Shown here piece by piece: positions 11,695-36,508 of a stretch of 64,000 bases of DNA. The notes beneath the pieces are model-generated. The model was not told where the DNA came from. It saw only the letters and a list, made by a program, of their open reading frames with translations, and did not search any database. A program made the position numbers and the translations under genes. Position 1 is the stretch's first letter. Each line of letters starts with the position of its first letter. The stretch spans positions 1,702 through 65,701 of the forward strand of contig CAYZVO010000004.1 of the NCBI GenBank assembly GCA_964481655.1, written 5' to 3'. The stretch is from an uncultured Enterobacterales bacterium. Its GTDB lineage: Bacteria; Myxococcota_A; UBA796; JAFGLY01.

Positions 11695-14600
11695 ATGTCG
11701 TGCACCCCGGCACCGGTCCGACCCATGCACATCCTCGCGCTCCCCCTCATCGCCACCCTGCAGGCCGCCACGATCACCGTGGGCTCGGGCTCGAGCTACG
11801 ACCACGCCAGCATCCAGGACGCCATCGACGACGCCAGCGACGGGGACACCATCACGGTGGCCACGGGCACCTACGCCGAGTCCATCGACCTGGCGGGCAA
11901 GGAGCTCACCATCGAGTCCTCGGGCTCCACCTCCCGCACGGTCATCGCGCCGACGGGGAGCTCGCCCGCGATCACGGTGGACCAGGGCGAGAGCGCCGTG
12001 ACGGTCGAGGGCTTCACCATCCAGCCCAGCGGCGGCCGGGCCATCTGGGTCGAGGACTCCAGCCCCTCGTTCGTGGACCTCGCCATCGACAGCGCGGGCA
12101 CGCCGTCCAGCGGTCAAGGCGGCGCCATCTACATCTCCGGCGGCGCCCCCAGCTTCGACCAGCTCGAGGTCTCGGGCAGCCGCGCGGCCTACGGCGGGGA
12201 CCTCTACCTGACCGATCACGCCGACGTGCTGATCACCGACAGCAGCTTCGACAGCTCCCAGGCCACCTTCGGAGGCAGCGTCTGGGCCGAGAACTCCACC
12301 CTCACCCTCATCTCCGTCAGCGCGGTGGACGCGCGCTCCTCCAACTCGGGGGGCTGGGGCTACTTCGACAACGCCGAGCTGTACGCCACGGACCTCGAGC
12401 TCGAGGACCCCAGCGGCGACACCTGCTTCGGCGCCGGGCTGTTCGCCCTGGACCACAGCCACGTGGAGTGGGACGGCGGGGGCGTCAGCGGCGCCGTCGC
12501 GGACGAGTACCGCTCCGGCTACACCGGCGGCGCGGTCCACCTGCGCGGCTCGTCGACCTTCGACGGCACCGACCTGCTCTTCGAGGACAACCTGGCCTAC
12601 GCCGGCGGCGCCATGGACGTGCAGGACAGCGCCAGCGCGACCCTGACGGACTGCAACTTCGACGACAACGAGGCCTACACCAAGGGCGGCGGCCTGCGGG
12701 CCTACGACAGCGGCTCGGCGGCCTGCGACGGCTGCGCCTTCGAGGGCAACGTCGCCGCTGAAGGCGGCGCGGTCGATGTGAGCGTGGACGCCAGCTACAC
12801 GGATCAGGACGGCAGCTACGACGACAACGAGGCCAGCTCCGGCGACGGCGGCGCCGTCCGCGTGGCCGACGACGCCGAGGTCTACATCGAGGGCGCCAGC
12901 TTCGAGGGCAACGCCGCCAGCGAGTCCGGCGGCGCCCTGGCGGTGGAGGACCCGGGCGACGAGGACGTCTACCTGGTCAGCGCTACCTTCACCTCGAACA
13001 CCGCCCAGACCGGCGACGGCGGCGCGGTGGCCATCACCTCCGACGCCAACCTGTGGCTGGATCTGTGCAGCTTCGACCTCAACGAGGCCTCTCTGGGCTG
13101 GGGCGGCGCGGTGGCCTTCGATCCCGACAGCCCGGGCTACACCCTCGAGGCCAGCGACTGCACCTTCGAGGAGAACCAGGCCGACGACGGCGGCGGCGCG
13201 CTGTGGGCCAACGAAGCGGACGAGATCACAGTCCTGGACTCCGCCTTCCTCCGCAACGAGTCGGCCGCTGACGGCGGCGCACTGTACCTCGAGGGCAACG
13301 ACGAGGTGCTGGCCCGCCGCAACCTGTTCCACGAGAACACCGCCGTCTCGGTGGGCGGCGCCTACTACGAGACGGGCACCGCCATCAGCGCCGAGGTCAC
13401 CAACTGCATCTTCTCCGAGAACATGGCGACGCTGGGCGCCGCCGTGGCCCTCGAGGACCAGACCATCCAGATGGAGCTGGTCAACAACAACCTCACCGGC
13501 AACGACGCCACCAGCGACGGCGCCCACCTCTACCTGAGCTCCGCGACCATCAGCTTCGTCAACAACATCGCCACCAACGGCGTGGACGGCGGCGGGCTGT
13601 ACGCGGCGGACAGCGCCTCGGCCTCGGGATCCGACTTCTACTACGACGACGTGTGGTCCAACTCCGGCGGAGACTACACCGGCACCCTGACCGACCCGGT
13701 GGGGACCAGCGGCAACATCTCCGAGGATCCCCAGCTGCGCTCCTACACCCAGGACGGGGACGAGACCAACGACGACCACCACCTGGAGCTCGACAGCCCC
13801 TGCCTGGACCAGGGCGACCCCAGCATCGTCGATCTGGACGGCACCCAGTCGGACATCGGCGTGTACGGCGGCCCCTACGCGGACGGCTCCGACGCCGACG
13901 GCGACGGCTACTGGGACATCACCGACTGCGACGACACCGACCCCACCATCCACCCCGGCGCCGAGGAGACCCCCTACGACGGGATCGACCAGGACTGCGA
14001 CGGGCACGATCTGATCGACGTGGACGGCGACGGCTACGAGGCCCCGGACGTGGGGGGCACCGACTGCGACGACGATGATGCGACCATCTATCCGGGCGCG
14101 CCGGACACCTGGTACGACGGCGTGGACAGCGACTGCGCCGGGGACGACGACTACGATCAGGACGGCGACGGCTACCAGTCCTCCGCCTACGGCGGCCAGG
14201 ACTGCGACGACACCGATCCCAACATCAACCCCGGCGTGCCCGACACCTGGTACGACGGCGTGGACAGCGACTGCGACGGCCACAGCGACTACGACGCCGA
14301 CTACGACGGCCGGGACGACGTCGGCTACGGCGGCGACGACTGCGACGACACCGACGGCAGCATCTACCCCGGCGCCACCGAGATCCCCTACGACGGCCTC
14401 GACCAGGACTGCGACGGCGAAGACATCACCGACGTGGACCAGGACGGCTACGACGCCGAGGTGGTGGGCGGCACCGACTGCGACGACGAGAACGCCGAGG
14501 CCTACCCCGGCGCCCCCGATGACCCCTACGACGGCGTGGACACCGACTGCGACGGCTTCCACGACTACGATCTGGACCACGACGGCTACATCCCGGTCAC

Positions 14601-16857
14601 CTTCGGCGGCGAGGACTGCGACGACACCGACCCGATGATCAGCCCCGAGGCCGACGAGATCTGGTACGACGGCGTGGACCAGGACTGCGACGAGCACAGC
14701 GACTACGACCAGGACTTCGACGGCTGGGACAGCGACCAGTACGGCGGCGAGGACTGCGACGACACCCACGCCGACGCCCACCCCGGCGCCACCGAGATCT
14801 GGTACGACGGCATCGACCAGGCCTGCGACGGCGGCGACGACTACGACCAGGACGGCGACGGCTGGCAGTGGTCGGCCTTCTACGGCCCCGAGGACGACTG
14901 CAACGACGAGAACGCCCACATCCACCCCGGGGCGGTGGAGCAGTTCAACGGGCTGGACGACGACTGCGACGGCTGGACGGAGCTGGACGACCGGGACCAG
15001 GACGGCATGGCCGACTGGTTCGAGTGGATGCACGGCACCGACTACGAGAACCCGGACACCGACGGCGACACCCTGCTGGACGGCGAGGAGATCGACAGCA
15101 CCCTCGACCCCGCTGACACCGACGCGGACACCATCATCGATCCCCTGGACGAGGACGACGACGGAGACGGCATCCCCAGCCGCACCGAGCTGACCACCGA
15201 CGTGGACGACGACCAGATCTGGGACCAGGACGTGGACGGCGACGGCCTGCTCAACTCCGTGGACAAGGACGCCGACGGCGACAGCTACCCCGACCGCACC
15301 GAGGGCACCGAGGATCGGGACCGCGACGGCGTGCCCGACTACCTGGACTACACCGGGGACTACGCCGGAGGCGGCTGCGCGGCCCTCAGCGGCTGCGGCG
15401 GCGGCAACGGCGGCCTGGCCGGCCTGCTGCTGCTCGGCGGCCTGTTCGGCTCCCGGCGCCGGCGTCGGGCCACCATCTGGGCCCCCCTCGCGGGCCTGGG
15501 CCTGCTGCTGGCGCTCGCGCTCCAGCCCGGCGCCGCCACGGCGGCGGAGGACTACGACGCCGTGGACGTGCGCGGGTTCTGGATGGCCGACACCTCCGGC
15601 GATCCCCACCGCCCCGTGCGCCTGGCCTACCCCTCCTCGGGCACCGGCTGGGACGCCGGCCTGCTGGTGGACGCCGCCCGCAATCCCCTGGTCGAGGTCA
15701 TGCCCGACGGCCGCGAGGCCATCGTCGACCTGATGACCAGCGCCCACGCCTTCGGCGGCATCTCCTGGCGGGGAATGCGCTTCGACATGGCGGTGCCGGT
15801 CACCCTCTACGGGCACGATCTGGCGGGCGGCTTCGCCGCCATGGGCGACCTGCGGGCCGGGATGCACGGGCCCGCCGTGGCCCCCCGGGGCAGCGGCCCC
15901 GGGGGGGGTGTGGCCGCCTGGGGCTGGCTGCCCACCGGAGGCGAGGCCCGCTGGTCCGGCAGCCCCGGGGCCGCCGCGGGCGCCGTGGCGACGGTGGCCC
16001 AGGAGATCGGCCCCATCGGCTGGACCGTCAACGCCGGCGTGCGCGTGGCCCGCGCCGACGACGCCCGCAACATCCGCTCCGGGCCCGGCCCCCTGGGGGG
16101 CGCGGACCTGCACTACAGCGTCACCGACGCCCTCGCCGGGGGCGTCGGCGCCGTGGTCCAGGGCACCACCGGCTGGAGCTCCTGGCCCCTCGTGGCCGAC
16201 GCCCGGGTCCGCTACCGGGTCCGCGGTGGCGGCTTCGCCATCGCCGGCCTGGCCACCGGCATCACCGACGGCGTCGGCGCCGCGGGAGCGCGGGCCTACG
16301 CCGGCGTCGGCTACGGCCGGCGGCGCTCGGACTGGAGCCCCGCGATCATCGAGGCGCCCGTGCCCACCCTGATCCACGAGGTCACGGTCCAGCCCGGTGA
16401 GCTGCCGCTGGTGGAGCAGCCCCTGGCCTTCCTGGCCGAGGACCGCATCGTGGTCGGCGAGCAGATCTTCTTCCGCGAGGCCCGCACCGCGATCCTGCCG
16501 GAGAGCGAAGAGGTGCTCGAGGCCGTCCGCGACGTGCTGATGGAGCATCCCGAGGTCACCTGGCTGCTGGTGGAGGGACACACCAACTCCCGCGGCAGCG
16601 AGGGCTACAACCTCGAGCTGTCCGAGGGCCGCGCCCAGGCCGTGGTCGACTGGCTGGTGGCCCACGGCGTCCCCTCCGAGCGCCTGCTGGCCAAGGGCCA
16701 CGGCGAGAACCAGCCCCTGCTCGAGGACAACCACCCCGACGCCATGGTGGTCAACCGCCGGGTGGAGTTCCTGGTCCTGCGCTCGGACGAGACCCCGGAC
16801 GACGTGGTGCGCCCGGACCAGAACGCCGTCCCCGATGAGGCGTGGAAGGATCGATAG
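11695..16857 (+). CDS. giant secreted repeat protein: Pmp-type parallel beta-helix, 8 MopE-like Cys/Asp repeats, TSP3-like Ca-binding repeats, internal MYXO-CTERM-like segment, C-terminal OmpA domain
   Basis: Signal-like MHILALPLIATLQA (alternative ATG 11725). Repeated FxxN...GGA(L/V) units. Eight copies of DCDDxDxxIxPGAxExxYDGxDxDCDG. DxDxDG runs. GGGCAALSGCGGGNGGLAGLLLLGGLFGSRRRRR. The C-terminus LLVEGHTNSRGSEGYNLELSEGRAQAV...NRRVEFLV matches the OmpA_C signature. Confidence 0.8.
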   Translation: MSCTPAPVRPMHILALPLIATLQAATITVGSGSSYDHASIQDAIDDASDGDTITVATGTYAESIDLAGKELTIESSGSTSRTVIAPTGSSPAITVDQGESAVTVEGFTIQPSGGRAIWVEDSSPSFVDLAIDSAGTPSSGQGGAIYISGGAPSFDQLEVSGSRAAYGGDLYLTDHADVLITDSSFDSSQATFGGSVWAENSTLTLISVSAVDARSSNSGGWGYFDNAELYATDLELEDPSGDTCFGAGLFALDHSHVEWDGGGVSGAVADEYRSGYTGGAVHLRGSSTFDGTDLLFEDNLAYAGGAMDVQDSASATLTDCNFDDNEAYTKGGGLRAYDSGSAACDGCAFEGNVAAEGGAVDVSVDASYTDQDGSYDDNEASSGDGGAVRVADDAEVYIEGASFEGNAASESGGALAVEDPGDEDVYLVSATFTSNTAQTGDGGAVAITSDANLWLDLCSFDLNEASLGWGGAVAFDPDSPGYTLEASDCTFEENQADDGGGALWANEADEITVLDSAFLRNESAADGGALYLEGNDEVLARRNLFHENTAVSVGGAYYETGTAISAEVTNCIFSENMATLGAAVALEDQTIQMELVNNNLTGNDATSDGAHLYLSSATISFVNNIATNGVDGGGLYAADSASASGSDFYYDDVWSNSGGDYTGTLTDPVGTSGNISEDPQLRSYTQDGDETNDDHHLELDSPCLDQGDPSIVDLDGTQSDIGVYGGPYADGSDADGDGYWDITDCDDTDPTIHPGAEETPYDGIDQDCDGHDLIDVDGDGYEAPDVGGTDCDDDDATIYPGAPDTWYDGVDSDCAGDDDYDQDGDGYQSSAYGGQDCDDTDPNINPGVPDTWYDGVDSDCDGHSDYDADYDGRDDVGYGGDDCDDTDGSIYPGATEIPYDGLDQDCDGEDITDVDQDGYDAEVVGGTDCDDENAEAYPGAPDDPYDGVDTDCDGFHDYDLDHDGYIPVTFGGEDCDDTDPMISPEADEIWYDGVDQDCDEHSDYDQDFDGWDSDQYGGEDCDDTHADAHPGATEIWYDGIDQACDGGDDYDQDGDGWQWSAFYGPEDDCNDENAHIHPGAVEQFNGLDDDCDGWTELDDRDQDGMADWFEWMHGTDYENPDTDGDTLLDGEEIDSTLDPADTDADTIIDPLDEDDDGDGIPSRTELTTDVDDDQIWDQDVDGDGLLNSVDKDADGDSYPDRTEGTEDRDRDGVPDYLDYTGDYAGGGCAALSGCGGGNGGLAGLLLLGGLFGSRRRRRATIWAPLAGLGLLLALALQPGAATAAEDYDAVDVRGFWMADTSGDPHRPVRLAYPSSGTGWDAGLLVDAARNPLVEVMPDGREAIVDLMTSAHAFGGISWRGMRFDMAVPVTLYGHDLAGGFAAMGDLRAGMHGPAVAPRGSGPGGGVAAWGWLPTGGEARWSGSPGAAAGAVATVAQEIGPIGWTVNAGVRVARADDARNIRSGPGPLGGADLHYSVTDALAGGVGAVVQGTTGWSSWPLVADARVRYRVRGGGFAIAGLATGITDGVGAAGARAYAGVGYGRRRSDWSPAIIEAPVPTLIHEVTVQPGELPLVEQPLAFLAEDRIVVGEQIFFREARTAILPESEEVLEAVRDVLMEHPEVTWLLVEGHTNSRGSEGYNLELSEGRAQAVVDWLVAHGVPSERLLAKGHGENQPLLEDNHPDAMVVNRRVEFLVLRSDETPDDVVRPDQNAVPDEAWKDR
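13890..14975 (+). repeat. coding tandem array of 8 MopE-like putative metal-binding repeats (~38-40 aa each)
   Basis: ITDCDDTDPTIHPGA, GTDCDDDDATIYPGA, GQDCDDTDPNINPGV, GDDCDDTDGSIYPGA, GTDCDDENAEAYPGA, GEDCDDTDPMISPEA, GEDCDDTHADAHPGA, EDDCNDENAHIHPGA. Each is followed by YDGxDxDCDG. Confidence 0.8.
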
Positions 16858-16890
16858 GGACAGGGCGACGCCTGGGCCCGGCCCGAGGGA

Positions 16891-16928
16891 GCTGATAGGC
16901 GACAGCTGACAGCTGACAGCTGACAGCT
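16891..16928. repeat. family A heptamer array (GCTGACA)n, solo arm
   Basis: GCTGATA GGCGACA GCTGACA GCTGACA GCTGACA GCT, lying between stop 16857 and start 16938. Confidence 0.85.
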
Positions 16929-16937
16929 CGGAGCCCC

Positions 16938-17831
16938 ATGCTCTCCTGGACCAAAGCCGGGGCCGTCAAGCGGCCCCCCCCCCTGCAGATCCGCGTGCAG
17001 CGCCGCTACCCGGACCGGGTGCGCGCGGGGGCTCCCCTGCCCACCCGCAGCCTGTCCCGGGCCGAGCTGCTCGCCAACCTGCGGCACTTCACCGAGGGCA
17101 AGCGGGGCCCGCGCACCGCGCCCTGCACCACCCTGGTGCTCTCGGGGGTCGGGCTGCTGGCCTCGCCGGACACCGCGCCGGTGCTCGAGGCCGCTCGCGA
17201 GCTCGGCATCGAGCACGTGGTGCTGCACGCTGGCACCGAGGACCTGGCCGGCTTCGACGCCGCCCCCTGGAGCGCGCTGGTGGACGTCCTGGTGGTCCCC
17301 CTGCAGCCGGGCCGGGGCGACGCGCTGCTGGAGCATGGCGCGCGAGCGGTCGCCGCCTGTCGGGAGGCGGGCATCGAGGTGGCCGCCAACACCGTGCTCC
17401 GCGCCGAGGCGGTAGACGCCCTGACAGCCCTCGTCGGCCTGGTGCAGCGCCTCGCCCCCCACAGCCTGACCCTGTCCTACCCCTTCCCCAGCGGCGGTCC
17501 CCAGCCCGCCCCGCCTCACCCTCGGGCGCTGCTGCCTGCGCTGCAGCGGGCCGTGGAACAGCTCGAGGCGGCCGGAGCCGACCCACGGCTCAAGGGCCTG
17601 CCCGCCTGCTGGCTGGGTCCCCTCGCCCACCGCCTCCGCCCGTCGTCCAACCGCTGGTACGTCGACGCCGATCACCAACTGGACGGCGCGCTGCTGTTCT
17701 TCCCGGACGTGCTGGCCTTCCACAAGGGCGACGCCTGCCGCTTCTGCGTCAGCGACGGACGCTGCGACGGCTTCTTCGCCGCCTGGCTGCGCCAGCCGGG
17801 CTTCCCCGGGCTGGAGCCGATGGACGCCTGA
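16938..17831 (+). CDS. hypothetical protein, possibly a radical-SAM/SPASM-derived fold lacking the CxxxCxxC triad
   Basis: High GC3. LVLSGVGLLASPDTAPVLEAARELGIEHVVLHAG resembles the GGEP/TIM-barrel core. The C-terminal CRFCVSDGRCDG is Cys-rich. No N-terminal Cys triad. Confidence 0.45.
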   Translation: MLSWTKAGAVKRPPPLQIRVQRRYPDRVRAGAPLPTRSLSRAELLANLRHFTEGKRGPRTAPCTTLVLSGVGLLASPDTAPVLEAARELGIEHVVLHAGTEDLAGFDAAPWSALVDVLVVPLQPGRGDALLEHGARAVAACREAGIEVAANTVLRAEAVDALTALVGLVQRLAPHSLTLSYPFPSGGPQPAPPHPRALLPALQRAVEQLEAAGADPRLKGLPACWLGPLAHRLRPSSNRWYVDADHQLDGALLFFPDVLAFHKGDACRFCVSDGRCDGFFAAWLRQPGFPGLEPMDA

Positions 17832-17834
17832 CGG

Positions 17835-19061
17835 TCAGTCGGCGGGCTCTTCGATGCGGGCGAGCTGGGCGCAGGCCTGCTGCACCCGCGCGCTGGTGCC
17901 GCCACACACGGCGCGCAGGCGCCGCTCTGCCAGCTCGACCCGACCGGCGGTGAGCGCGGCCTGAGCCTGGTACCAGCCGAGATCCCGCAGCTCGGGCTCG
18001 AGCTCGGCGACGCGGTCGAAGGCCTCCACGGCTTGGTCTCCCCTGCCCGCGCAGAGGGCGGCCAGGGCCTCCCAGGTCCAGGCCTGGACCAGGGCGGGAT
18101 CCCGCATACGGGCCAGCCGGAAGCGGTTGGCACCCATCGCGCAGTCCCCCAGCGCGAGCTCCTCGAAGGCTGGCTCGAGGGCGGGGGCCACGTCCCGGGG
18201 TGCTGGGAACGGAGGCAGCTCGCCTTCGGCCAGCTCGGCGAGGGCGGGGTCGATTGTCGGCGCGGCGAGCTCCCCACCGCAGCCGTGGTCCATGCGCGAG
18301 ATGATGAGCACGAGGGCCACCGCCAGGACCGCCAGGGGCAACACCCGCATCGGCCGCTCGCCCCGCTTGCGACGGCGCAGCCGGCGGCGCTTGGCGGCCT
18401 TGTCACCGCCGTCACGGGCGGCCTCCACCGCGTCGGCGGTCTCGAGCAGGCGCTGCAGCATGGCCTCGGCCGCGCTGGAGCTGTCGCTCTTGTCCTCGGC
18501 GCCCCCGCTGTAGCGGCCCGGGTGTTCGGGGCCACCGAGGAAGGCCACCTGGCGGGTGCCATCCAGGGCGGCGTCGATGTGGTGCTGGGCGGTGATCTCT
18601 TCCGGATCGTCGTCCTCTTCCTCGTCGAAGGTGGCCGACGCGGCCGCGTCGCGCACGGAGCGGGCCTGCTCGGTGCACTCGGCGCAGGAGCTCAGGTGTT
18701 GCTCCGCGGCGTTCCGACTGGCGCTGGCCAGGATCTGGGGCACGAGGGCCACCGAGACGAGGATCCCGGGGGGCAGGTGTCCCGCTCCCCGCTCGGACCC
18801 CTGCAGGCGCCGCAGGTGCTCCACGCCCCGCCGCGCCGCCGCCATCACGGCCGCGGCCAGCAGGGTGTCCATGGCTCGCAGCTCACGCTCGAGGGCTTCC
18901 GCCACCGCCGCGTTGGCCAGCACCCGCTGGGTGACCGGGTCGTCCACTCGCAGCGACGGATGGGACAGCAGCTGGCGCGCAGCCGAGCGGAGCTGATCCT
19001 CGACGGCCCGTGCGGCCTCTTGGTCGCCCTGGAGCGCGCGCTGCACGGTGCGGTTGTCCAT
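17835..19061 (-). CDS. membrane-spanning anti-sigma-factor-like protein (HxxxCxxC zinc motif)
   Basis: Start trimmed to MDNRTVQRAL (ATG 19061). HLSSCAEC fits the ZAS H-x3-C-x2-C motif. Basic stretch KRRRLRRRKR, then TM helix VLPLAVLAVALVLIIS, then a helical C-terminal domain. The upstream 280 codons of the track ORF overlap the divergent regulator and are rejected. Confidence 0.55.
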   Translation of the reverse strand: MDNRTVQRALQGDQEAARAVEDQLRSAARQLLSHPSLRVDDPVTQRVLANAAVAEALERELRAMDTLLAAAVMAAARRGVEHLRRLQGSERGAGHLPPGILVSVALVPQILASASRNAAEQHLSSCAECTEQARSVRDAAASATFDEEEDDDPEEITAQHHIDAALDGTRQVAFLGGPEHPGRYSGGAEDKSDSSSAAEAMLQRLLETADAVEAARDGGDKAAKRRRLRRRKRGERPMRVLPLAVLAVALVLIISRMDHGCGGELAAPTIDPALAELAEGELPPFPAPRDVAPALEPAFEELALGDCAMGANRFRLARMRDPALVQAWTWEALAALCAGRGDQAVEAFDRVAELEPELRDLGWYQAQAALTAGRVELAERRLRAVCGGTSARVQQACAQLARIEEPAD

Positions 19062-19154
19062 AGTGATCGACCAGCTGGAGTTCGGACAGGCTCTCTCAGA
19101 GGATAACCGAGTTAAGGAGCAAACCCACGGAACGAGCGAAGACGACGCCCCCCG

Positions 19155-20612
<1,458 letters not shown>

Positions 20613-20618
20613 CCCGGG

Positions 20619-20787
20619 AGCTATCAGCCGTCAGCTGTCAGCTATCAGCTCCGTTTCGCCAGCCGCAGCGCCCCTGGTGAGCCAGCGGCGTTGCGCCCCG
20701 TGGGCGTCGATCGGCTCGCGACGTCACTGGCCCACCGCCGGCGCGTCCGCCCGGCGTGACGAGGCTGACGGCTGACAGCTGACAGCT
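20619..20787. repeat. family A element: heptamer inverted-repeat arms flanking a ~110-bp conserved core
   Basis: Left arm AGCTATC AGCCGTC AGCTGTC AGCTATC AGCT. Right arm GCTGACG GCTGACA GCTGACA GCT. The core is homologous to the reverse complement of 36371-36482. Confidence 0.85.
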
Positions 20788-20789
20788 CC

Positions 20790-21584
20790 TCACTCCATCG
20801 CCAGCTTGGCTTCGTCGCCCTCGAAGGTGGCGCCGACCCAGTCCATGGGGGAGCTGGGGAGCTTGCGCACGAGGCGGGGGATGGTGCGCATGACCAGGCG
20901 CCGGTTGGCCTGGCTGTCGGCCTGCAGCTCGGGCTGGTGGGCGATGAAGCGCTCGCAGGCCTCGAGCTGGGCGGCGGTGGTCAGCGCGGTGGCCGCGAAG
21001 GCGCGATCCGAGGCGTCCAGCTCGATGTCGTCGATGCTGTCACGGAGCGGCTGCTCGGGGACCTCCACCGGCCGGAACAGCCGCGCCTCGACCCGGCCGA
21101 CGACCCGCGCCGCCCGGGGCTCGGTGGCCTCGAGGGTCAGGCGGTGGACCACCACGGCATGCCGCTGCCGGAACAGCCCATCCACGAAGATGGGCAGGTC
21201 GTAGTAGGCCCCCTCGACCTCGAGCTCGAGGGCGACCACCTGCACGAAGCCCTCCCGCTCGAGCAGCTCGAAGCGCACGGTGCCCAGGGCCACGTCCGAG
21301 GCCTCCGCCTGCATGCGGAGCAGCTGGGCCAGGTTCTCTTCTTCCCCAGGGAGCAGGGCCGGGCCGAGCTGGCCGCGGGCGGCGTTCAGCTGATCCGACA
21401 GCACGTCCGCGGCCCGGACCACGTCGATGGACTCCACCCGCTCCCGCAGGCTGGGCGGGGCCTCGGTGGGCTCGGGTGCGGCGGGCGCCAGCCACAGCGC
21501 CACGCCGCCCAGCGCCACGCAGACCGCGATCCCGGTCCAGATGAGGGGGGCGATGCGCGCGCGGGCGCTGCGGGGCGGGGCCAT
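20790..21584 (-). CDS. hypothetical membrane-anchored protein (PilO/GspM-like topology, weak)
   Basis: Single N-terminal TM helix IAPLIWTGIAVCVALGGVALWLA. High GC3. Starts 4 nt after the upstream lipoprotein gene. Confidence 0.5.
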   Translation of the reverse strand: MAPPRSARARIAPLIWTGIAVCVALGGVALWLAPAAPEPTEAPPSLRERVESIDVVRAADVLSDQLNAARGQLGPALLPGEEENLAQLLRMQAEASDVALGTVRFELLEREGFVQVVALELEVEGAYYDLPIFVDGLFRQRHAVVVHRLTLEATEPRAARVVGRVEARLFRPVEVPEQPLRDSIDDIELDASDRAFAATALTTAAQLEACERFIAHQPELQADSQANRRLVMRTIPRLVRKLPSSPMDWVGATFEGDEAKLAME

Positions 21585-21588
21585 GGGG

Positions 21589-22122
21589 CTAGTCGAGGTA
21601 GTAGGACGGCCCCGTGCTCATGACCCGGCCCTCGAGGATGTCGAGCACGTCCTCGAGGATCTGCCGCTCCTTGCGGGTGGAGCTGGGCACGTCCAGCCAC
21701 TCGTAGATGGCCCCCGTGAACTCGAGGTTGGCGGAGATGATGTCCTTCTCCACCTGCTCGTGGATCACCAGGCGCACCTCGACCCGTCCGGAGCGGTTGC
21801 GGATCTCCATCAAGACGCGGAAGCGGATCTTCTCGGGGATCCGCGTCCCCGCGAAGGTGTTGTAGACGTAGTCCGAGGTGCCGTGGACCCACTCGGTGGA
21901 GATCACGCCGCGCTCACGGTCGACCCGCGACACGGGGTAGCGGTCGCTCATCACCTGGAGCGAGGCGTCCCAGACGGACTGGAAGTCGGCGTTGAAGTTG
22001 CCGTAGACCGGACGCTCTTCGTAGGCCGGCAGCTTGTCTTCGGGGAACGGAGGCGGCACGCAGGCGACCGCGAGGAGCGTCCCCAGCAGGATGAGCTTGG
22101 TGAAGAGGCGGGCAGGGCGCAT
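21589..22122 (-). CDS. hypothetical lipoprotein
   Basis: Start trimmed to MRPARLFTKLILLGTLLAVAC (lipobox). Only the last 178 codons of the 1097-aa track ORF look coding. Confidence 0.6.
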   Translation of the reverse strand: MRPARLFTKLILLGTLLAVACVPPPFPEDKLPAYEERPVYGNFNADFQSVWDASLQVMSDRYPVSRVDRERGVISTEWVHGTSDYVYNTFAGTRIPEKIRFRVLMEIRNRSGRVEVRLVIHEQVEKDIISANLEFTGAIYEWLDVPSSTRKERQILEDVLDILEGRVMSTGPSYYLD

Positions 22123-22257
22123 GGAGACCTCGGCCGAGGTGAGCGGGAGCGCGACCCGCGGTCCAGACCAGGACTTGCGAGCCGACTCGAGTAGGAGAGA
22201 GGATAATGGAGGGCCCCGGTCGCGAGCAAGCGCCGAGCGCCACCCAACGGAGCACAC

Positions 22258-23088
22258 ATGGACATCCTGGTCGCCCTGGATGGCTCCCCCTGGAGCGACG
22301 CCGCCACCCGCACGGCCATCGAGCTGTGCCGGAACGCCCCCAGTCCACCGCGGCTCACGGCCATCCACGTGGTCAGCGTGGTGAAGCTCTCCGGCAAGCG
22401 CCTGCGCGATCTCGCGGGTTTCCTGGGGTTCGAGCCGGTCATCGTCCCGGAGAAGGTCGAGGCGTTCTACCAGCAGCGCGGCCGCGACATCCTCGACGCC
22501 TTCGCGCGCGCCTGCGAAGAGGCCGGCGTCCGGCACCGCGAGGTGCTGGAGCAGGGCAACGTGGTGGAGCGCCTGGTGCATCACGGTGACCAGGCCGACC
22601 TGGTGGTCATCGGCGCGCGGGGCGATCGGGAGATCGCCTGGCCCGGCATGGGGGGCACCACAGCCGAGCGCGTGGTCAAGCACCTCGAGACCCGCGCGCT
22701 GGTCATCCCCAAAGATCAGGGACCGCTCACGGGCATCCTGCTGAGCTACGACGGCAGCGCGGGCTCCGCCAAGGCCCTGCGCGCCACCCGCCACCTGCTC
22801 GAGTTCATCTCGCTGCCGGTGCACGCGGTGCACGTGGCCCACGGCGCCCTCGACCGGGATCCCCTGGTCGAGGTCGCGGCCCACCTCGAGGGCCTGAACG
22901 TGGAGCTCCACCTCCACCACCTGCGCGGCGAACCCCACGAGGCCCTGGTGGCGGCCGCGAGCGACCACGGCTGCAACCTGATCGCCCTGGGGTACCGCAA
23001 GCGGAGCATCATCGGGGATGTGTTCCTGGGACGGGTCACAGAGTGGCTGCTGCGCTATGTCCCCGTGGCCTTGCTCGTCTCCCGCTAG
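22258..23088 (+). CDS. universal stress protein, tandem UspA domains
   Basis: MDILVALDGSPWS ... LVVIGARG and a second unit ILLSYDGSAGS ... LIALGYRKRS. Confidence 0.8.
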   Translation: MDILVALDGSPWSDAATRTAIELCRNAPSPPRLTAIHVVSVVKLSGKRLRDLAGFLGFEPVIVPEKVEAFYQQRGRDILDAFARACEEAGVRHREVLEQGNVVERLVHHGDQADLVVIGARGDREIAWPGMGGTTAERVVKHLETRALVIPKDQGPLTGILLSYDGSAGSAKALRATRHLLEFISLPVHAVHVAHGALDRDPLVEVAAHLEGLNVELHLHHLRGEPHEALVAAASDHGCNLIALGYRKRSIIGDVFLGRVTEWLLRYVPVALLVSR

Positions 23089-23094
23089 CGCACC

Positions 23095-23349
23095 ATGAAC
23101 GCCCCCCGCTTCACCCGCATCATCGACCGCATCGCCCTGGTGGGACACCCCGCCGGCGAGGCCCTCGGCGAGTGGCTGCTGCGCTCCGCGAGCCGGAGCA
23201 TGGGCCGTGTCGTGGGGCGCGCCTCGACCTTGATCGCCCCCTGCTTCCCCCTGCAACGGCTGGGAGAGGCCTTCGACGAGGGCCTGGACGAGTCCCGCTG
23301 TGCCCCGGCCCCACGGGGACGGGTGCTCCACTTCCCCGACCGCGACTGA
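23095..23349 (+). CDS. small hypothetical protein (84 aa)
   Basis: G/C-rich third positions. Tightly packed between usp (6 nt) and the helicase gene (12 nt). No recognisable motif. Confidence 0.4.
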   Translation: MNAPRFTRIIDRIALVGHPAGEALGEWLLRSASRSMGRVVGRASTLIAPCFPLQRLGEAFDEGLDESRCAPAPRGRVLHFPDRD

Positions 23350-23361
23350 GCCGGAGCGTCG

Positions 23362-25890
23362 GTGCCCCCCACGCCCCCGGCACGCTTCCTCCCGCGGCCC
23401 GCGGAGGTGATGCGCGACGCCATCGCCGAAGCCGGCGGGATCGAGGTGTTCGCCATCGGCAACACCGACGGCTCGGGGCGGGTGAAGGACCTCGAGATCC
23501 ACGCCCGGGGCAACCAGCACGCCGTGACCGCGCTGTTCGAGCGCGTGCGGCCGGGCCAGGTGGTCATCCACAACCACCCCTCGGGCGTCCTGCAGGCCTC
23601 CGACGCCGACCTCAACCTCGCCGGGCACTACGGCGAGCAGGGCGTGGGCCTGGTGATCGTGGACAACGATGTGAGCCGAGAGCTGTGGGTGGTCGAGCCC
23701 CACCACCGCGAGGCCACCCCGGTGGACCAGGGCGCCGTGGAGGCCTTCTTCGAGCACGGCATGCACCAGGCCATCGCCGACTGCGAGATCCGCCCGGGCC
23801 AGCTCGAGATGGCGCGGGAGGTCGCGACGCGCCTGAACGAGGGTGGCATCCTGGCGGCCGAGGCGGGCACGGGCACCGGCAAGTCCCTGGCCTACCTGGT
23901 GCCCGCGGTGCTGTGGGCCACCGCCAACGACGAGCGGGTGGTGGTCTCCACCTACACCAAGGCCCTGCAGGACCAGCTGGCCAGCAGCGACATCCCTCTG
24001 GCTCAGGCCGGTGGGCTGCAGTTCGAGTGGGCCATGGTCAAGGGACGGGGCAACTACCTGTGCCGCCGCAAGCTCCAGGACGCCGTGCAAGAGGCCGCCA
24101 GCGGCGGCGACGACGACCCCGAGACCGCCCAGCTGAAGCGCGTCGCGGCCTGGGCCGAGGTCAGCCCCGAGGGTGACCGCGCCGACCTGACCTTCCCCAT
24201 CCCCGGGGAGCTGTGGGAGGCGGTGGCCTCGGATCGCAACCAATGCCTCGCGGCGCGCTGCCCCCACTTCGAGCGCTGCTTCTACTTCGAGGCCCGCCGA
24301 CGGGCCGCCGGAGCCCACCTGGTGATCGTCAACCACAGCCTGCTGCTGGCCGACCTGGCCATCAAGCGCGACGCGGGCGGCCGAGGCGTGCTGCCCTCCT
24401 ACGGGCGGGTGATCATGGACGAGGCCCACCACGCCGAGCAGGCGGCGACCTCGGCGGGCACCACCCGGGTCACGGCCCTCGCCATCCAGCGCGCCGTGGC
24501 GCCGCTGCTGGGCAGCAAGCGCAAACGACGCGGGGCCCTCGCCCGGCTCGCGGCCCGCTGGGGTGGTGTGGCCAACGAGGACGCCGGCCTGCGCGACGCC
24601 ATCGCCGCGGACTGCGAGGCCGTGGAGCACCTGGCCCGGGAGCTGCGCACCGCGGCCCCCTCCTGGCTGGAGGAGCTCGCCTTCGCCACCGAGCTGGACG
24701 GCCAGCCCATCGCGCTGGACATCCCCGCCGAGCGGCCCCCGCCCGCCGAGCACATCGACTGGGACGAGCCCCCGCCCCAGCCCGTCCCACAGGAGCTCCC
24801 GGGCCCATGGAAGGAGTCCCTGGGCCTGCTGGTGGAGCGCACCGCCGAGACCGCGCGCACCATCGGCAAGCTCGAGAAGCACTTCCTGGACCTCGAGGTC
24901 GCCTCAGACGAGCAGCAGCCCCTGTTGGACCTGCGCCAGGCCCGGCTGCGGCTGGCCTCCCAGGCCGCGGGAGCGCGTGCAGCCCTCGAGCACAGCCCGG
25001 ACTTCTGCCGCTGGGTGGAGCCCGACGGCCGGCGCATGCGCGCGGTGGTGTGCCGGGCCCCCATCGACGTAGGCCCCTTCCTCGCCTCCGCGCTCTACCC
25101 CTCGGCCCGCACCCTGGTGCTCACCTCGGCCACCCTGGCGGTGCGCAACTCCTTCGTGTTCACGCTCTCCAGGCTGGGCCTCGACCCGCCAGGCCCCGAC
25201 GTGCCCCCGGTGGAGCAGCGGCGCTGGACCTCGCCCTTCGACTTCGCCTCCCAGGTGCTGCTCGGCCTGCCCCGGGACCTGCCCCCGCCGGGCCACCCGC
25301 AGCACGACGACGCGGCGGCGCGGGTGATCGTCCAGTCCCTCGAGCACGCCGGCGGCGGTGCCTTCGTGCTGTGCACCAGCTTCGCCCAGATCCGCAGCCT
25401 CGGCGATCGGGTCGAGGCCGCGCTGGGCCAGCGCTTCACCATCCTGCGCCAGGGCGAAGGCGGCCGCTCCCAGCTGCTCGCCCGCTTCCGCCAGGACCCC
25501 GACAGCGTGCTGTTCGGCACCGACTCGTTCTGGGAGGGTGTGAGCGTCAAGGGCGACGCCCTGCGCCTGGTGATCATCCCCAAGCTGCCCTTCGGCGTCC
25601 CCACCGAGCCCATCACCGTGGCCCGCCACGCCCGCATGCGCGGCGTGGGGGTGGACCCCTTCAAGGCCGACACGCTGCCCCGGGCCGTGCTGCGGCTGCG
25701 CCAGGGCTTCGGCCGGCTGATCCGGGGCCACACCGACCGGGGCGTCGTGCTGATCCTGGACCGGCGGCTGCACGATCGCTGGTATGGCCGCCAGTTCCTG
25801 GCCAGCCTGCCCGCGGCCGCCCGGGCCACCGGCCCAGCCCAGCACGTGCTGCAGCGAGTCCAGCGCTTCTACCAGGCCCAGGACGCGTGA
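23362..25890 (+). CDS. dinG: JAMM/JAB-domain fused to DinG/XPD-family Fe-S ATP-dependent DNA helicase
   Basis: N-terminal VVIHNHPSGVLQASDAD matches the JAMM H-x-H-x7-S-x2-D motif. AEAGTGTGKSLAYLVPA (Walker A), four Cys (YLCRRK, QCLAARCPHFERCFY) for a 4Fe-4S cluster, VIMDEAHH (DEAH box). C-terminal helicase_C2-like VLCTSF...GTDSFWEGVS. GTG start at 23362 (alternative ATG 23410). Confidence 0.8.
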   Translation: MPPTPPARFLPRPAEVMRDAIAEAGGIEVFAIGNTDGSGRVKDLEIHARGNQHAVTALFERVRPGQVVIHNHPSGVLQASDADLNLAGHYGEQGVGLVIVDNDVSRELWVVEPHHREATPVDQGAVEAFFEHGMHQAIADCEIRPGQLEMAREVATRLNEGGILAAEAGTGTGKSLAYLVPAVLWATANDERVVVSTYTKALQDQLASSDIPLAQAGGLQFEWAMVKGRGNYLCRRKLQDAVQEAASGGDDDPETAQLKRVAAWAEVSPEGDRADLTFPIPGELWEAVASDRNQCLAARCPHFERCFYFEARRRAAGAHLVIVNHSLLLADLAIKRDAGGRGVLPSYGRVIMDEAHHAEQAATSAGTTRVTALAIQRAVAPLLGSKRKRRGALARLAARWGGVANEDAGLRDAIAADCEAVEHLARELRTAAPSWLEELAFATELDGQPIALDIPAERPPPAEHIDWDEPPPQPVPQELPGPWKESLGLLVERTAETARTIGKLEKHFLDLEVASDEQQPLLDLRQARLRLASQAAGARAALEHSPDFCRWVEPDGRRMRAVVCRAPIDVGPFLASALYPSARTLVLTSATLAVRNSFVFTLSRLGLDPPGPDVPPVEQRRWTSPFDFASQVLLGLPRDLPPPGHPQHDDAAARVIVQSLEHAGGGAFVLCTSFAQIRSLGDRVEAALGQRFTILRQGEGGRSQLLARFRQDPDSVLFGTDSFWEGVSVKGDALRLVIIPKLPFGVPTEPITVARHARMRGVGVDPFKADTLPRAVLRLRQGFGRLIRGHTDRGVVLILDRRLHDRWYGRQFLASLPAAARATGPAQHVLQRVQRFYQAQDA

Positions 25891-25925
25891 TAGAACGGGC
25901 TGTCCCCCCATCGAGCGAGGTTCCC

Positions 25926-26411
25926 ATGGCCAGCCACAAGCGCGACGACGAGACCACCGAGCGCGGCGAGGGTGACGGTCGGCGTGAGCGCCACGAGGGT
26001 CGCCTGAGGGACTTCGCCCGGCGCATCCTGGCCGAGCGCCCGCCCCGGGAGCGCGACCCCGACGACGACGTCGAGCGCGAGGGCTACGTGCCCCTCGAGG
26101 TCGCCAAGGACGCCATGGCCTCCATCCTCGAGACCGGCGATCGCGCCAAGACCGAGATGGTCCGCATGGTGGCCCGCGAGGTGCGCCACTACCTGGACGA
26201 GCTGCAGCTGGTCGAAGGCCTGGAGCACATGCTCCGCAACTACACCCTCGAGGTCCACGCGAGCCTGAGCCTCGAGCCCAAGGACGAGCGAGACCCGGAC
26301 GATCCGCCGGTCACCGTCGAGGCCAAGCCCAAGCGCAAGGCGAAGAAGGACGAGGACGAGGGGGAGGACGAGGTGGTCGACGCAGAGGTCGAGGAGCCCC
26401 AGGAGGACTGA
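25926..26411 (+). CDS. hypothetical highly charged protein (161 aa)
   Basis: Start at ATG 25926 (MASHKRDDETTERGE...). Central helical segment, acidic/Lys-rich tail. High GC3. Confidence 0.5.
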   Translation: MASHKRDDETTERGEGDGRRERHEGRLRDFARRILAERPPRERDPDDDVEREGYVPLEVAKDAMASILETGDRAKTEMVRMVAREVRHYLDELQLVEGLEHMLRNYTLEVHASLSLEPKDERDPDDPPVTVEAKPKRKAKKDEDEGEDEVVDAEVEEPQED

Positions 26412-26492
26412 GGAAGGTCGGGGGAGGCGAGAGGCGAGAGGCGAGTCGCGACCTACGACCGACGACACACGACTCGCGACCCACCTACGACC
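26412..26492. repeat. family B heptad-periodic palindromic element (short copy)
   Basis: GGCGAGA GGCGAGA GGCGAGT CGCGACC TACGACC GACGACA CACGACT CGCGACC. GCGAGTCG pairs with CGACTCGC. It fills the gap between stops 26411 and 26493. Confidence 0.8.
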
Positions 26493-27413
26493 TCACTCAT
26501 CCACCTTCGCAGGCTTGAGCCGCACCAGCACGCCATCCTCCCGCGCCAGCTTGCGCAGGGCGAGCATGTCGATCTCCGAGAGGTTGTTCAGGATCCCCTC
26601 GACCTGGCCGGTGCTGCCGTCGAGCTTGGCCACCAGCTCCCGGGCCTCGCCCATGGCGAGGGAGGCCTCGTCCACCAGACCCGGGGCCTGCTCGGCGGCG
26701 TCGGCCAGGGAGCCCGCGGCGCGCTCGAGCTCGCCCAGCAGGGTGTCGCCCCGCGCCAGCATGGGCTCGAGCTCGGCTGAGACCCGGCGCAGATCGGCGA
26801 CAGCCTGGCGGCCCTCGGTGACCAGGGCCGGGGCCTGCTCGCTGGCGACGCGCAGGTTGTGGAGCATGGCCTCGGTGTCGGCCAGCATACGCTCCACGCG
26901 CTCTGGGTCCTCGGCCAGGGCGTCGGACAGCACGCCCATCAGCTCAGCCATCTGCTCGGCGTCCATGGCGGCCACCAGGGGCCCCATGCCGTTGACCATC
27001 TCGTCGATCTCCATCTGGCCTTCGGTGACGACGATCCGGTCGCCTTCCGCCAGCAGAGTGCCCTTCGAGGGACCCGGCAGCAGCTGCACGTACTTCTCAC
27101 CCAGCACCGAGCGGGCGCGGATGGCGGCCCGGGTGTCCCGGGGGACCTGCAGCTCCTCGTCGATCAGCAGCTCCATCCAGGCCTGGTTGTCCTGGACCCA
27201 GATGCGCTCGACGGAGCCCACGTCCACGCCGGCCACCGAGACCACGGCGCCCTCGACCACGCCGCCGGCGTTGTCGAACACGGCCTGGACCCGGTAGGTG
27301 CCCGCCTGCATCCGGAAGGCCCCGACCTGGACCGCCAGGTAGGCCAGGATGAGCAAGGCCACCAACAGCAGCACGCCCACGGCGAGCTCGTGCTTGCGGT
27401 TGCGGGCGCTCAC
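26493..27413 (-). CDS. mlaD: MlaD/MCE-domain substrate-binding protein with long helical C-terminal extension
   Basis: GTG start at 27413 overlapping the mlaF stop (GTGA). N-terminal TM helix ELAVGVLLLVALLILAYLAV. MCE core YRVQAVFDNAGGVVEGAVVSVAGVDVGSV. Confidence 0.8.
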   Translation of the reverse strand: MSARNRKHELAVGVLLLVALLILAYLAVQVGAFRMQAGTYRVQAVFDNAGGVVEGAVVSVAGVDVGSVERIWVQDNQAWMELLIDEELQVPRDTRAAIRARSVLGEKYVQLLPGPSKGTLLAEGDRIVVTEGQMEIDEMVNGMGPLVAAMDAEQMAELMGVLSDALAEDPERVERMLADTEAMLHNLRVASEQAPALVTEGRQAVADLRRVSAELEPMLARGDTLLGELERAAGSLADAAEQAPGLVDEASLAMGEARELVAKLDGSTGQVEGILNNLSEIDMLALRKLAREDGVLVRLKPAKVDE

Positions 27414-28216
27414 GAGCCGGCCCTCGCGCCCGGGGCCGTGAGGCCCGCGAGCCAGGCGGTGTCGAGGTTGCGGCGCAGGAAGTTCTTCACGATCGGGTCG
27501 GTGGAGGCGAGCACCTGGCGGGTGGGCCCGAACTCCACGAGGCGGCCCTCGTATAGCATCCCGATGTGGTCCGCGACCTTGACCGTCCCGACGATGTCGT
27601 GGCTGATGACCACGAAGGTGATGCCCAGGCGGCGCTTCATGTCGATGATCAGCTGGTCGATGGCCTCGGAGGTCAGCGGATCGAGCCCGGAGTTGGGCTC
27701 GTCGAAGAGGATGATCTCGGGCTCCATGACGATGGCCCGCGCCAGCCCCACCCGCTTGCGCTGCCCCCCAGACAGCGAGGCGATGCCGCGACCGGAGAAG
27801 CCCGGCAGCCCCACCCACTCCAGCTTCTCGTCCACCAGGCGCTGGCGCTCGGTGGGGCCCAGAGCCTTGCGGTGGTGCTCGAGGGGGAAGCCGACGTTCT
27901 GCCCGACGGTCAACGAGTCGAACAGGGCGCCGTCCTGGAAGAGCATCCCCATGCGCCGCCGCAGGGCGTAGAGCTGGCGCTCCGAGGCGGCGGCCACGTC
28001 CTGGCCGAAGACCCGCACGGCGCCGCGGTCCGGCCGCAGCAGGCCGATGATGTGCTTGAGCAGCACCGACTTGCCCGTGCCGGACGCCCCGATGATGGCG
28101 GTGGTCTCGCCCGCGGGGATGCCGAGGCTGATGTCGTGGAGCACCTGGGTCTCGCCGAAGGACTTGTAGACGCCCTCCAGCTCGATCACGGGCGCAGGCG
28201 CGCTGGCCCTATCCAT
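27410..28216 (-). CDS. mlaF: ABC transporter ATP-binding protein, MlaF type
   Basis: GASGTGKSVLLKHI (Walker A), LSGGQRKRVGLARAI (signature), ILFDEPNSGLD (Walker B). Confidence 0.9.
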   Translation of the reverse strand: MDRASAPAPVIELEGVYKSFGETQVLHDISLGIPAGETTAIIGASGTGKSVLLKHIIGLLRPDRGAVRVFGQDVAAASERQLYALRRRMGMLFQDGALFDSLTVGQNVGFPLEHHRKALGPTERQRLVDEKLEWVGLPGFSGRGIASLSGGQRKRVGLARAIVMEPEIILFDEPNSGLDPLTSEAIDQLIIDMKRRLGITFVVISHDIVGTVKVADHIGMLYEGRLVEFGPTRQVLASTDPIVKNFLRRNLDTAWLAGLTAPGARAGS

Positions 28217-28949
28217 AGAACAGCTCCGACATGAAGTAGTTGAGGAAGACCACCACCACGCTCACGGTGACCACGGCGCCGTTGGTGGCCTTGCCCACAC
28301 CCTCGGGGCCGCGGCCGGCCTCGAAGCCGAAGAAGCAGGCCACCAGCGCGATGATGATCCCGAACACCAGGCCCTTGGTCATGCAGTACAGGAAGTCCAC
28401 GCCCTGGATGCCCTCGCGGGCGAACTCGAGGAAGACCGCGCCGTTGAGGCCCAGCTGCCAGATGGTGACCAGGTAGGCGCTGCACAGCGTGGCGAAGATC
28501 GCGACGATGGTCAGGGCCGGCAGCACGAGCACGATGCCCGCCAGCCGCGGCAGGATCAGGTACCACATGGGGTTGACCGCCATGGCCTCGAGGGCGTCGA
28601 TCTGCTCGCGGATGCGCATGACCGCGATGTGGGAGGCCATCTCGGTGCCGGCCTTGGCGGCGATCATGGCCGCGGCGATGACCGGCGCCATCTCGCGGAT
28701 CCCGGCGGTGGAGACGAACATGCCCACCAGCCGCGAGCCGCCGAGGGGCGCGAAGGCGTTGTAGCCCTGCAGGGCCAGGTTGGTGCCCACGAAGGCCGAG
28801 ATGATCAGCAGCACCGGCAGGCTCTTGACCCCGATCCGGTAGGCCTCGGCCATCACCATGCCGGGGGGAGGCGGACGCCGCCACGACGCCCGCGCGAAGG
28901 CTCCCAGGAAGAGCCCGAAGCGGCCGATGCCGGTGATGAAGGCGATCAT
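28209..28949 (-). CDS. mlaE: MlaE/YrbE-family ABC permease (copy 2)
   Basis: Start trimmed to MIAFITGIG (ATG 28949, ATGA overlap with the upstream gene). MRIREQIDALEAMAVNP and C-terminal GPEGVGKATNGAVV are typical of MlaE. Confidence 0.8.
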   Translation of the reverse strand: MIAFITGIGRFGLFLGAFARASWRRPPPPGMVMAEAYRIGVKSLPVLLIISAFVGTNLALQGYNAFAPLGGSRLVGMFVSTAGIREMAPVIAAAMIAAKAGTEMASHIAVMRIREQIDALEAMAVNPMWYLILPRLAGIVLVLPALTIVAIFATLCSAYLVTIWQLGLNGAVFLEFAREGIQGVDFLYCMTKGLVFGIIIALVACFFGFEAGRGPEGVGKATNGAVVTVSVVVVFLNYFMSELFYG

Positions 28950-29695: not shown

Positions 29696-29792
29696 CCTTC
29701 CTCGCGGCGGACGCGACCATGGGCGGTCACGCAGGCCCGCTCCGGTTAATCCCCCGGCTCGACCCGGGCGAGCCAGCCCGACCGGAGCTCCC

Positions 29793-32635: not shown

Positions 32636-32731
32636 CTGCCCGCCCGGGGAACCGACACGTGGGGCTCCCCCGGCCGGCTGCCCGGGGGCGCCCTCTGATC
32701 CCACCCACCCGGCGTCTCCACGGAGTCCGAC

Positions 32732-34661: not shown

Positions 34662-36344
<1,683 letters not shown>

Positions 36345-36345
36345 A

Positions 36346-36506: not shown

Positions 36507-36508
36507 CG

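Follow-up and report, generated by a model that had tools for sequence, protein, structure and literature searches.

A dispersed palindromic repeat with heptamer arms, apparently inserted between convergent genes in an uncultured marine, probably myxococcotal bacterium

Introduction

Several classes of small intergenic repeats resemble the element described here. Bacterial MITEs (for example, Correia, ERIC, RUP and Nezha) are non-coding elements of less than 300 bp, whose inverted ends allow a long hairpin to form and which are dispersed to unrelated intergenic sites and present or absent among related genomes (PMC10969869). REP/BIME elements and REPINs are extragenic palindromes located at gene 3' ends or between convergent genes and are considered to influence RNA 3' ends and DNA topology; REPs are 20-40 nt long, with a conserved head motif and an associated RAYT (PMC2817692, PMC3116915). 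The pneumococcal SPRITE is a mobile terminator-like hairpin repeat (PMC10969869). Heptamer repeats, on the other hand, are over-represented among the long intergenic simple repeats of bacteria; polymerase slippage has been put forward as an explanation, and Xanthomonas has been noted to contain inverted pairs (PMC4692102). TAACTGA repeats (which fit NNRCTGA) occur in Beggiatoaceae, cyanobacteria and Bacteroidetes in forward orientation, a few nucleotides upstream of the start codon, and their function is still unknown (PMC4679880).

In this study, we analyzed a 64-kb stretch of DNA from an uncultured bacterium (the window, 64,000 nucleotides in full), in which an original prediction made from the sequence alone had singled out an element present in two copies, here called A1 and A2 (family A). 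Like bacterial MITEs, these copies are short, non-coding and able to form a long hairpin, and they occupy unrelated intergenic sites that are empty in related genomes (three relatives for A1 and five for A2). Terminal inverted repeats are present in both, though they are atypical tandem heptamer arrays of variable length and not a fixed sequence; also unlike MITEs, family A has no target-site duplication and no known parent insertion sequence, and two copies have been seen. As with REP/BIME elements and REPINs, the palindromes are extragenic and lie at gene 3' ends between convergent genes, but they are ∼170 nt long and lack a GTAG-type head, and no RAYT is present in the window. A repeated hairpin where a terminator would sit is reminiscent of an intrinsic terminator or SPRITE, whereas the absence of a U-tract and a far longer stem are not. 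Finally, family A resembles the heptamer SSRs (cyanobacterial STRR, Xanthomonas GGGAATC and TAACTGA; PMC4692102, PMC4679880) in being intergenic and in varying by whole units; its NNGCTGA unit is close to TAACTGA, and a solo array in the window lies just upstream of a start codon in the TAACTGA orientation. In contrast to these SSRs, the arrays of family A are short and are paired as hairpin arms around a 113-nt core that is copied between sites. At least three tandem intergenic units, the definition of a heptamer SSR, were found in the arms and not in the core, and TRF reported a period of 7 at the solo array and at all four arms. Family A thus works like a MITE or a REP and is a member of neither.

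Results and discussion

Two copies of family A in the window

A1 (20619-20787) fills the entire convergent stop-to-stop gap of 177 bp, bounded by a TAG ending at 20612 on the plus strand and by a minus-strand stop at 20790-20792. The sequence agrees with the original prediction that the whole gap between the stops of the regulator gene and the next gene is one element with heptamer arms. Its parts and neighbors are as follows.

19155-20612, plus strand: left flank gene, sigma-54-dependent response regulator (Pfam Response_reg, Sigma54_activat and HTH_8)
20616-20789, no strand assigned: A1 hairpin, imperfect, ∼174 nt, its base 3 nt and 0-2 nt from the two stops
20619-20650, plus strand: 5' arm, AGCTATC AGCCGTC AGCTGTC AGCTATC AGCT, 4.6 units of AGCYRTC (TCAGCNN in another register)
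20651-20763, plus strand: core, 113 nt, non-repetitive
20764-20787, plus strand: 3' arm, GCTGACG GCTGACA GCTGACA GCT, 3.4 units of GCTGAYR, inverse complement of the 5' arm
20790-21584, minus strand: right flank gene, 264-aa protein of unknown function

A2 (36346-36506) fills the 164-bp gap between the stop of a kinase-like gene (36344) and that of dnaE2 (36509).

34662-36344, plus strand: left flank gene, 560-aa protein with a weak protein-kinase match
36343-36509, no strand assigned: A2 hairpin, core inverted relative to A1, both stop codons drawn into the stem
36346-36370, plus strand: 5' arm as read on this strand, AGCTGTC AGCCGTC AGCTGTC AGCC
36481-36506, plus strand: 3' arm as read on this strand, GAGCTGA CAGCTGA GAGCTGA GAGCT
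36509-39724, minus strand: right flank gene, error-prone DNA polymerase DnaE2

Although separated by 16 kb and located at unrelated loci, the two copies are clearly akin. A1 and the reverse complement of A2 have a mean column identity of about 83% over the whole element, and corresponding halves are 78% identical. The predicted alignment of the A1 core with the reverse complement of 36371-36482 was recovered (76% identity over 124 columns for the cores alone, E 1e-17), and the shared blocks named at that time (CCGTT, GGTGAGCCAGCRGCGYTGCGCCCCG and GGCCCACCGCCGGCGC) are all present in both copies. Alignment and folding showed that the arms differ by whole heptamer units, both between A1 and A2 and within one copy. 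The window has a G+C content of 71%, and the heptamer pattern has 20 matches in it, compared with 0.29 expected.

The element had also been described as having no ORF. A 61-aa ORF is in fact present at 20590-20775, but it is not conserved in A2, so that the original statement holds for conserved coding capacity: no conserved small ORF was found in the two copies, which differ by indels, the ORFs of A2 being only 31-37 aa long. In the flanking coding sequence, the kinase-like protein contains, close to its C-terminus, a Pro-Glu repeat encoded by an array of ∼19 CCCGAG units (35934-36045).

The window matches contigs of marine metagenomes. Among these, an independent ENA assembly (ERZ23498660, L001) has A1 without any difference, and three JGI assemblies (3300009008, 3300007510 and 3300007511; L125-L127) have the same A2 sequence as the window. 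Agreement of independent same-species assemblies from four samples indicates that both copies are real sequences and not assembly artefacts. Elsewhere in the window, differences from these assemblies were tightly clustered and one-sided (18527-18586, 32619-32686, 35658-35751, 36102-36177 and 46717-46799, the last with 13 G-to-T changes) and could reflect either misassembly of G+C-rich stretches or hypervariability of these local regions. The hairpin elements contain none of these differences.

One long hairpin on either strand

The original prediction distinguished two repeat arms from a separate structured core. Folding did not bear this out: the whole element forms one continuous imperfect hairpin of ∼170 nt. 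The minimum free energy (MFE) of A1 RNA was -111.8 kcal/mol for the plus strand (z -8.2) and -117.1 kcal/mol for the minus strand (z -7.0), and that of A2 was -95.9 (z -5.2) and -102.6 kcal/mol (z -4.4), respectively; none of 200 shuffles equalled these values for either copy on either strand. From the heptamer arms, the stem continues through CCGTT/GACGAGG into GGTGAGCCAG/CYGGCCCACC, the last of these helices being invariant between A1 and A2. In A1, the outer two thirds of the core thus prolong the stem, including the pairing of GGTGAGCCAG with CTGGCCCACC that had been proposed from the sequence and that appeared in the MFE fold at 9 out of 10 positions, with one A.C mismatch. The apical ∼40 nt of the core, on the other hand, are divergent between the copies and fold inconsistently. 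A surplus heptamer in the 5' arm of A1 is accommodated as a 7-nt bulge, which indicates that the arms change by whole units. When DNA parameters were used, the arms of A1 still paired (z -5.2) and the long-range pairing of the core was lost, because the core relies on G-U pairs. Both strands fold about equally well in A1, A2 and the two long hairpins of a second family (see below). Each arm unit of family A consists of the palindrome CAGCTG and a single spacer base, which is T in 5' arms and A in 3' arms, and this palindromic unit explains why the two strands look so alike.

It was further proposed that compensatory changes might reveal a maintained structure. Four pairs are altered on both sides between A1 and A2; however, 43 out of 500 shuffles reached the observed score, so the double changes are within the shuffle range, and two sequences are too few to be informative about covariation. 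Complementarity of the arms was 73-74% within a copy and 71% between copies, and no concerted evolution of the arms was seen in this comparison of two copies. Since complementarity within copies is not above that between copies and the double changes are not significant, nothing shows selection on structure.

These data bear on the possibility that the element is the gene of a small structured RNA, as the original prediction had allowed, or a cis-regulatory RNA of one of the flanking genes. The very stable fold and the four doubly altered pairs would be expected of such an RNA. However, neither strand folds better than the other, conservation does not extend to the apical region, and the double changes do not exceed those of the shuffles. 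Rfam gave no match in the window at the gathering score and only noise in 20560-20840 (E 3.8-7.8 in a search up to E 10), and it had no match for similar hairpins at 14 other loci. In addition, no promoter-like site was seen, and the element is lineage-specific, being absent from relatives that keep the flanking genes (see below). We consider an RNA of this kind very improbable, and that part of the original prediction was not supported.

Hairpins in convergent gaps of the window

To place family A in its genomic context, all gaps of the window were tallied from public gene tables together with our own gene calls. There are 11 convergent gaps, of 13, 3, 177, 81, 199, 164, 83, 68, 16, 223 and 0 bp, and five of them contain long heptamer-armed hairpins: A1, A2, 26412-26492, 30171-30369 and 59989-60211. 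None was found in the ∼45 tandem or divergent gaps of the window, where the solo array is the only array. This bias toward convergent gaps corresponds to a P-value of ∼1e-4 by Fisher's exact test done by hand. In the tabulation of location called for by the original prediction, all five long heptamer hairpins of the window thus lie in convergent gaps. Each of them extends up to, or takes in, both stop codons.

The three other hairpins constitute a second family (B), built from the heptamers GCGAGTC, GGTCGTA, CGACTGG and CCTCCMA. Two stretches of it, 30172-30280 and 60010-60118, are 78% identical, and the two long hairpins have z-scores of -4 to -6.5 on both strands about equally. The gap orthologous to 30171-30369 is 4-81 bp in relatives; in place of 26412-26492, three relatives have 5-8 bp and a further one has 110 bp.

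Repeats of other kinds were observed in coding regions of the window. A 138-bp tandem repeat (414-bp super-unit) at 13923-14863 lies inside a gene (11725-16857) for a protein of ∼1,711 aa that has Cys/Asp-rich MopE-type repeats, a beta-helix and an OmpA domain. Two hexamer arrays, (GACACC)n at 7640-7696 and (GTGTCG)n at 9187-9283, are 1.5 kb apart and 86-90% mutually complementary; they are located in two facing genes (7532-8554, plus strand, and 8568-9380, minus strand) and apparently encode Asp/Thr-rich repeats in both.

The position of the hairpins raises the question of termination, and a bidirectional terminator module was among the original suggestions. The location between convergent stops agrees with it, as does the restriction of all five long heptamer hairpins of the window to such gaps, whereas the canonical U-tract is absent: A1 is followed by CCTCACTCC on the plus strand and by CCCGGGCTAC on the minus strand. 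Lacking a U-tract on either strand, the element is not a canonical intrinsic terminator. A scan of 16000-31000 revealed no terminator-like or promoter-like consensus sites.

Empty sites in related genomes

We compared the window with a graded series of relatives that carry DnaE2 homologs and have conserved gene order (more distant named DnaE2 homologs were labelled Myxococcota or Deltaproteobacteria). The lengths of the gap between dnaE2 and the kinase-like gene are listed below, by identity of DnaE2 to that of the window.

The window itself: 164 bp
Relative with 90% identical DnaE2: 35 bp
Relative with 89% identical DnaE2: 7 bp
Relative with 88% identical DnaE2: 7 bp
Relative with 86% identical DnaE2: 10 bp
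Relative with 83% identical DnaE2: 33 bp

The short spacers of the five relatives have nothing in common with A2. Similarly, the gap between the regulator gene and the gene for the 264-aa protein is 65, 71 and 75 bp in three relatives, with unrelated sequence, versus 177 bp in the window. Only one out of six orthologous gaps was even mildly structured. No match to family A and no period-7 array was found in ∼142 kb of the relatives' syntenic DNA, as opposed to six heptamer loci in the 64-kb window. The occurrence of the 113-nt core at two unrelated sites, both of which are empty in relatives, indicates that the element was copied between sites in this lineage. On the basis of these sequence comparisons, the view that family A represents lineage-specific insertions, which would have spread to at least two sites, is well supported. 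It should be noted that no target-site duplication was found at A1 (flanked by CCCGGG and CCTCAC) or A2 (flanked by CTAGCG and TCTAAA), nor when these were set against the relatives' empty sites. Among the genes of the window there is no transposase domain and no RAYT gene.

A further heptamer locus, missed by the original prediction, consists of an array alone.

16890-16928, plus strand: solo array (AGCTGAC)n, arm-only, without core or inverted partner, in a tandem gap

The distance from its end to the ATG at 16938 is 10 nt, and this interval contains GGAG; the sense strand is the one that carries GCTGA. Relatives have shorter gaps without an array at this site and read GCTGTGG...GCCTATC where the window has (GCTGTCA)n GCTGTC GCCTATC; to judge from this alignment, the solo array may be the product of expansion in place. 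On the strand that carries GCTGA, an array of at least three GCTGANN units has a TGA in every one of the three frames.

It could be argued that family A itself arose in this manner, that is, by in-place growth of local terminator hairpins through heptamer slippage and quasi-palindrome correction, without any transposition, the similarity of the cores being due to gene conversion or chance. The apparent expansion at the site of the solo array offers a precedent, and both the variation of the arms by whole units and the lack of a target-site duplication would be natural outcomes. Nevertheless, two unrelated loci have cores with 76% identity over 113 nt, the gap at A2 measures no more than 7-35 bp in relatives and has no sequence in common with the core, and the second family is likewise dispersed (30172-30280 and 60010-60118, 78% identical). 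In view of these facts, growth in place appears an improbable origin for A1 and A2, and dispersal by insertion is the explanation that we prefer.

Search for further copies

Only the two full copies are known, with ∼83 kb of the source genome covered, and no further copy was present in ∼10 kb beyond the right end of the window. A pattern of the core had no match in metagenome contigs or in viral contigs. The arm-core junction pattern had 17 metagenome matches, all of which were chance matches or bare arrays without the core, and a conserved 16-mer gave 49 chance matches in viral contigs, none of them fitting the element profile. When the element was compared with 320 loci by blastn and nhmmer, only same-species assemblies were retrieved. 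Plasmid and phage collections contained no match to the element, and our literature search found no paper with the arm sequence. The original prediction had recognized no described family in this element. For the core this still holds, on the evidence of Rfam, the plasmid and phage collections, the scanned metagenome and viral contigs and the literature search; it does not hold for the arms, since intergenic heptamer repeats have already been described (PMC4692102, PMC4679880). As far as these sequence searches reach, the core would therefore define an undescribed family, and the arms belong to a known class of intergenic heptamer repeats.

Heptamer arms in other genomes and in viruses

Scanning genome contigs and viral contigs with three tandem copies of AGCYRTC revealed at least 119 genome loci (L002-L120) and at least 120 viral contigs (L132-L251). 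The genome loci listed, which do not extend to the source genome, include Acidobacteriota, Gemmatimonadota, Planctomycetota, Chloroflexota, Cyanobacteria, Poribacteria, Streptomyces and Myxococcota. A looser array rule yielded at least 519 arrays at the listed loci, and neighboring arrays were paired when no more than 300 nt apart. Among the listed loci, 110 pairs had (AGCNNTC)n as their 5' member and (GANNGCT)n as their 3' member, versus only seven pairs in the reversed order, several of which were merely adjacent elements. The loops between the arms ranged from 0 to ∼250 nt at these loci, with family A at the long end, and the cores enclosed by TCAGCNN/NNGCTGA arms were unrelated to each other. 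What is conserved in the unit is the pentamer TCAGC/GCTGA, accompanied by two free positions. Unpaired arrays located no more than 150 nt upstream of gene starts had GCTGA on the sense strand in 81 cases and on the other strand in 45 (listed loci, with crude gene calls). The solo array of the window and this bias have the same orientation as that reported for TAACTGA; the rule does not apply to A1 and A2, which follow stop codons.

No preference for convergent gaps was seen among the listed loci across phyla with these crude gene calls. The flanks were generally AT-enriched on both sides, with no directional signal of U-tracts or A-tracts across loci, and a T-run followed the hairpin at some loci only.

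On some viral contigs, a stretch of 10 kb contains three or four such hairpins, which often immediately precede an AGGAG and a start codon. Examples are L144 (2619-2743, 4006-4097, 6439-6522 and 8382-8512), L138 (3958-4048, 4860-4949 and 9327-9416) and L242 (4244-4324 and 6438-6524), in which the hairpins have short GC-rich apical hairpins, such as CCGGAATTCCGG, many of them just before AGGAG and the start codon. A few viral hairpins are followed by T runs, as in L242 (...GACAGCTTTTTTAGCC). L210, a viral contig of 55% G+C from the JGI sample of the window, has intergenic arrays of several unrelated heptamers, namely AATAACR, GGATGCA, CGATGCA and AGCYATC (6057-6638, 8053-8160 and 8300-8450), one of which forms a heptamer-armed hairpin just upstream of AAAGGAG-ATG.

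Taken at face value, the fact that this pentamer recurs with a period of 7 nt, in at least 119 genome loci as well as at least 120 viral contigs, raises the possibility that the arms themselves are the functional part. Arrays of GCTGA spaced by 7 nt in RNA, or of TCAGC/GCTGA in DNA, might be bound by a conserved sequence-specific factor, to which the hairpin would sequester or present the sites, and family A would then be the local version of a cross-phylum regulatory device that includes the TAACTGA repeats. The polarity of 110 versus seven pairs among the listed loci, which slippage alone does not predict, points in this direction, as do the unrelated cores between the arms, the bias of GCTGA to the sense strand (81 versus 45), again not expected from slippage alone, the conforming solo array and the orientation rule of TAACTGA (PMC4679880). 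In a broader form, TCAGCNN/NNGCTGA hairpins and TAACTGA repeats might reflect one undescribed sequence-specific machinery and not mere slippage, for example, an RNA- or DNA-binding factor or a mobilizing enzyme that recognizes 7-nt-spaced GCTGA, with family A as its mobile carrier; we offer this idea tentatively. On the other hand, no such factor has been identified, the gene calls behind the figure of 81 versus 45 are crude, and the flanks carry no consistent signal. The window also has hairpins made of quite different heptamers, which argues for a general process of heptamer slippage, and A1 and A2 conserve their core as well as their arms. A functional role of the arms in their own right thus seems to us rather unlikely, though less so than growth in place or an RNA gene, and is the main alternative to the explanation given below.

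Proposed origin and role of family A

Considering all of the above, we favor the view that family A is a non-autonomous, dispersed palindromic repeat of MITE/REP/SPRITE-like nature, which was recently inserted in this lineage and which, as a 3'-end hairpin between convergent genes, is either tolerated or of use, and assign it a probability of roughly 0.55. The original label of a MITE/REP-like element is appropriate in so far as the copies are dispersed, absent from the relatives' gaps, non-coding and equipped with inverted arms, and inappropriate with regard to the missing target-site duplication and to the size and motif of REPs. Of the two components of this explanation, the dispersed and inserted palindrome is well supported, and the 3'-end function is one that the hairpins would plausibly have.

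Each copy is an imperfect inverted repeat of ∼170 bp, in which the outer 25-30 bp of the arms are arrays of TCAGCNN (5') and NNGCTGA (3') that would gain or lose whole units by slippage. The element probably entered an uncultured marine, probably myxococcotal lineage after its split from the sequenced relatives and would then have been copied to at least two unrelated sites. Those that persisted are situated exactly between convergent stops, where an insertion would destroy no promoter or ORF. Whichever flanking gene is transcribed, the RNA would close into the same very stable hairpin, most plausibly a 3'-end structure that could hinder read-through into the antisense of the facing gene, attack by 3' exonucleases, or both. 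The sequences show the anatomy, the hairpin potential of both strands, the shared origin of the copies, their absence from orthologous sites and the positional bias within the window, whereas the mode of mobilization and any effect on termination or RNA stability are inferred. The case for a 3'-end function is weakened by the missing U-tract and by the relatives, in which the convergent genes that flank A2 are only 7-35 bp apart and need no hairpin.

Such insertions would explain why several convergent pairs of the window are spaced by 80-220 bp, compared with 4-35 bp in relatives, and our finding flags a recent, lineage-specific burst of hairpin repeats in this organism. If these hairpins stop or stabilize convergent transcripts without a U-tract, they would offer a handle on termination in high-GC bacteria, in which intrinsic terminators are poorly defined. 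More generally, the results join the over-represented intergenic heptamer repeats, a class whose role has been in question since 2007, with the small mobile palindromes, from which they are usually kept apart. The fixed polarity of TCAGCNN/NNGCTGA across phyla is a simple and testable regularity, not predicted by a neutral slippage model, and is the part of the present findings that is most worth following up.
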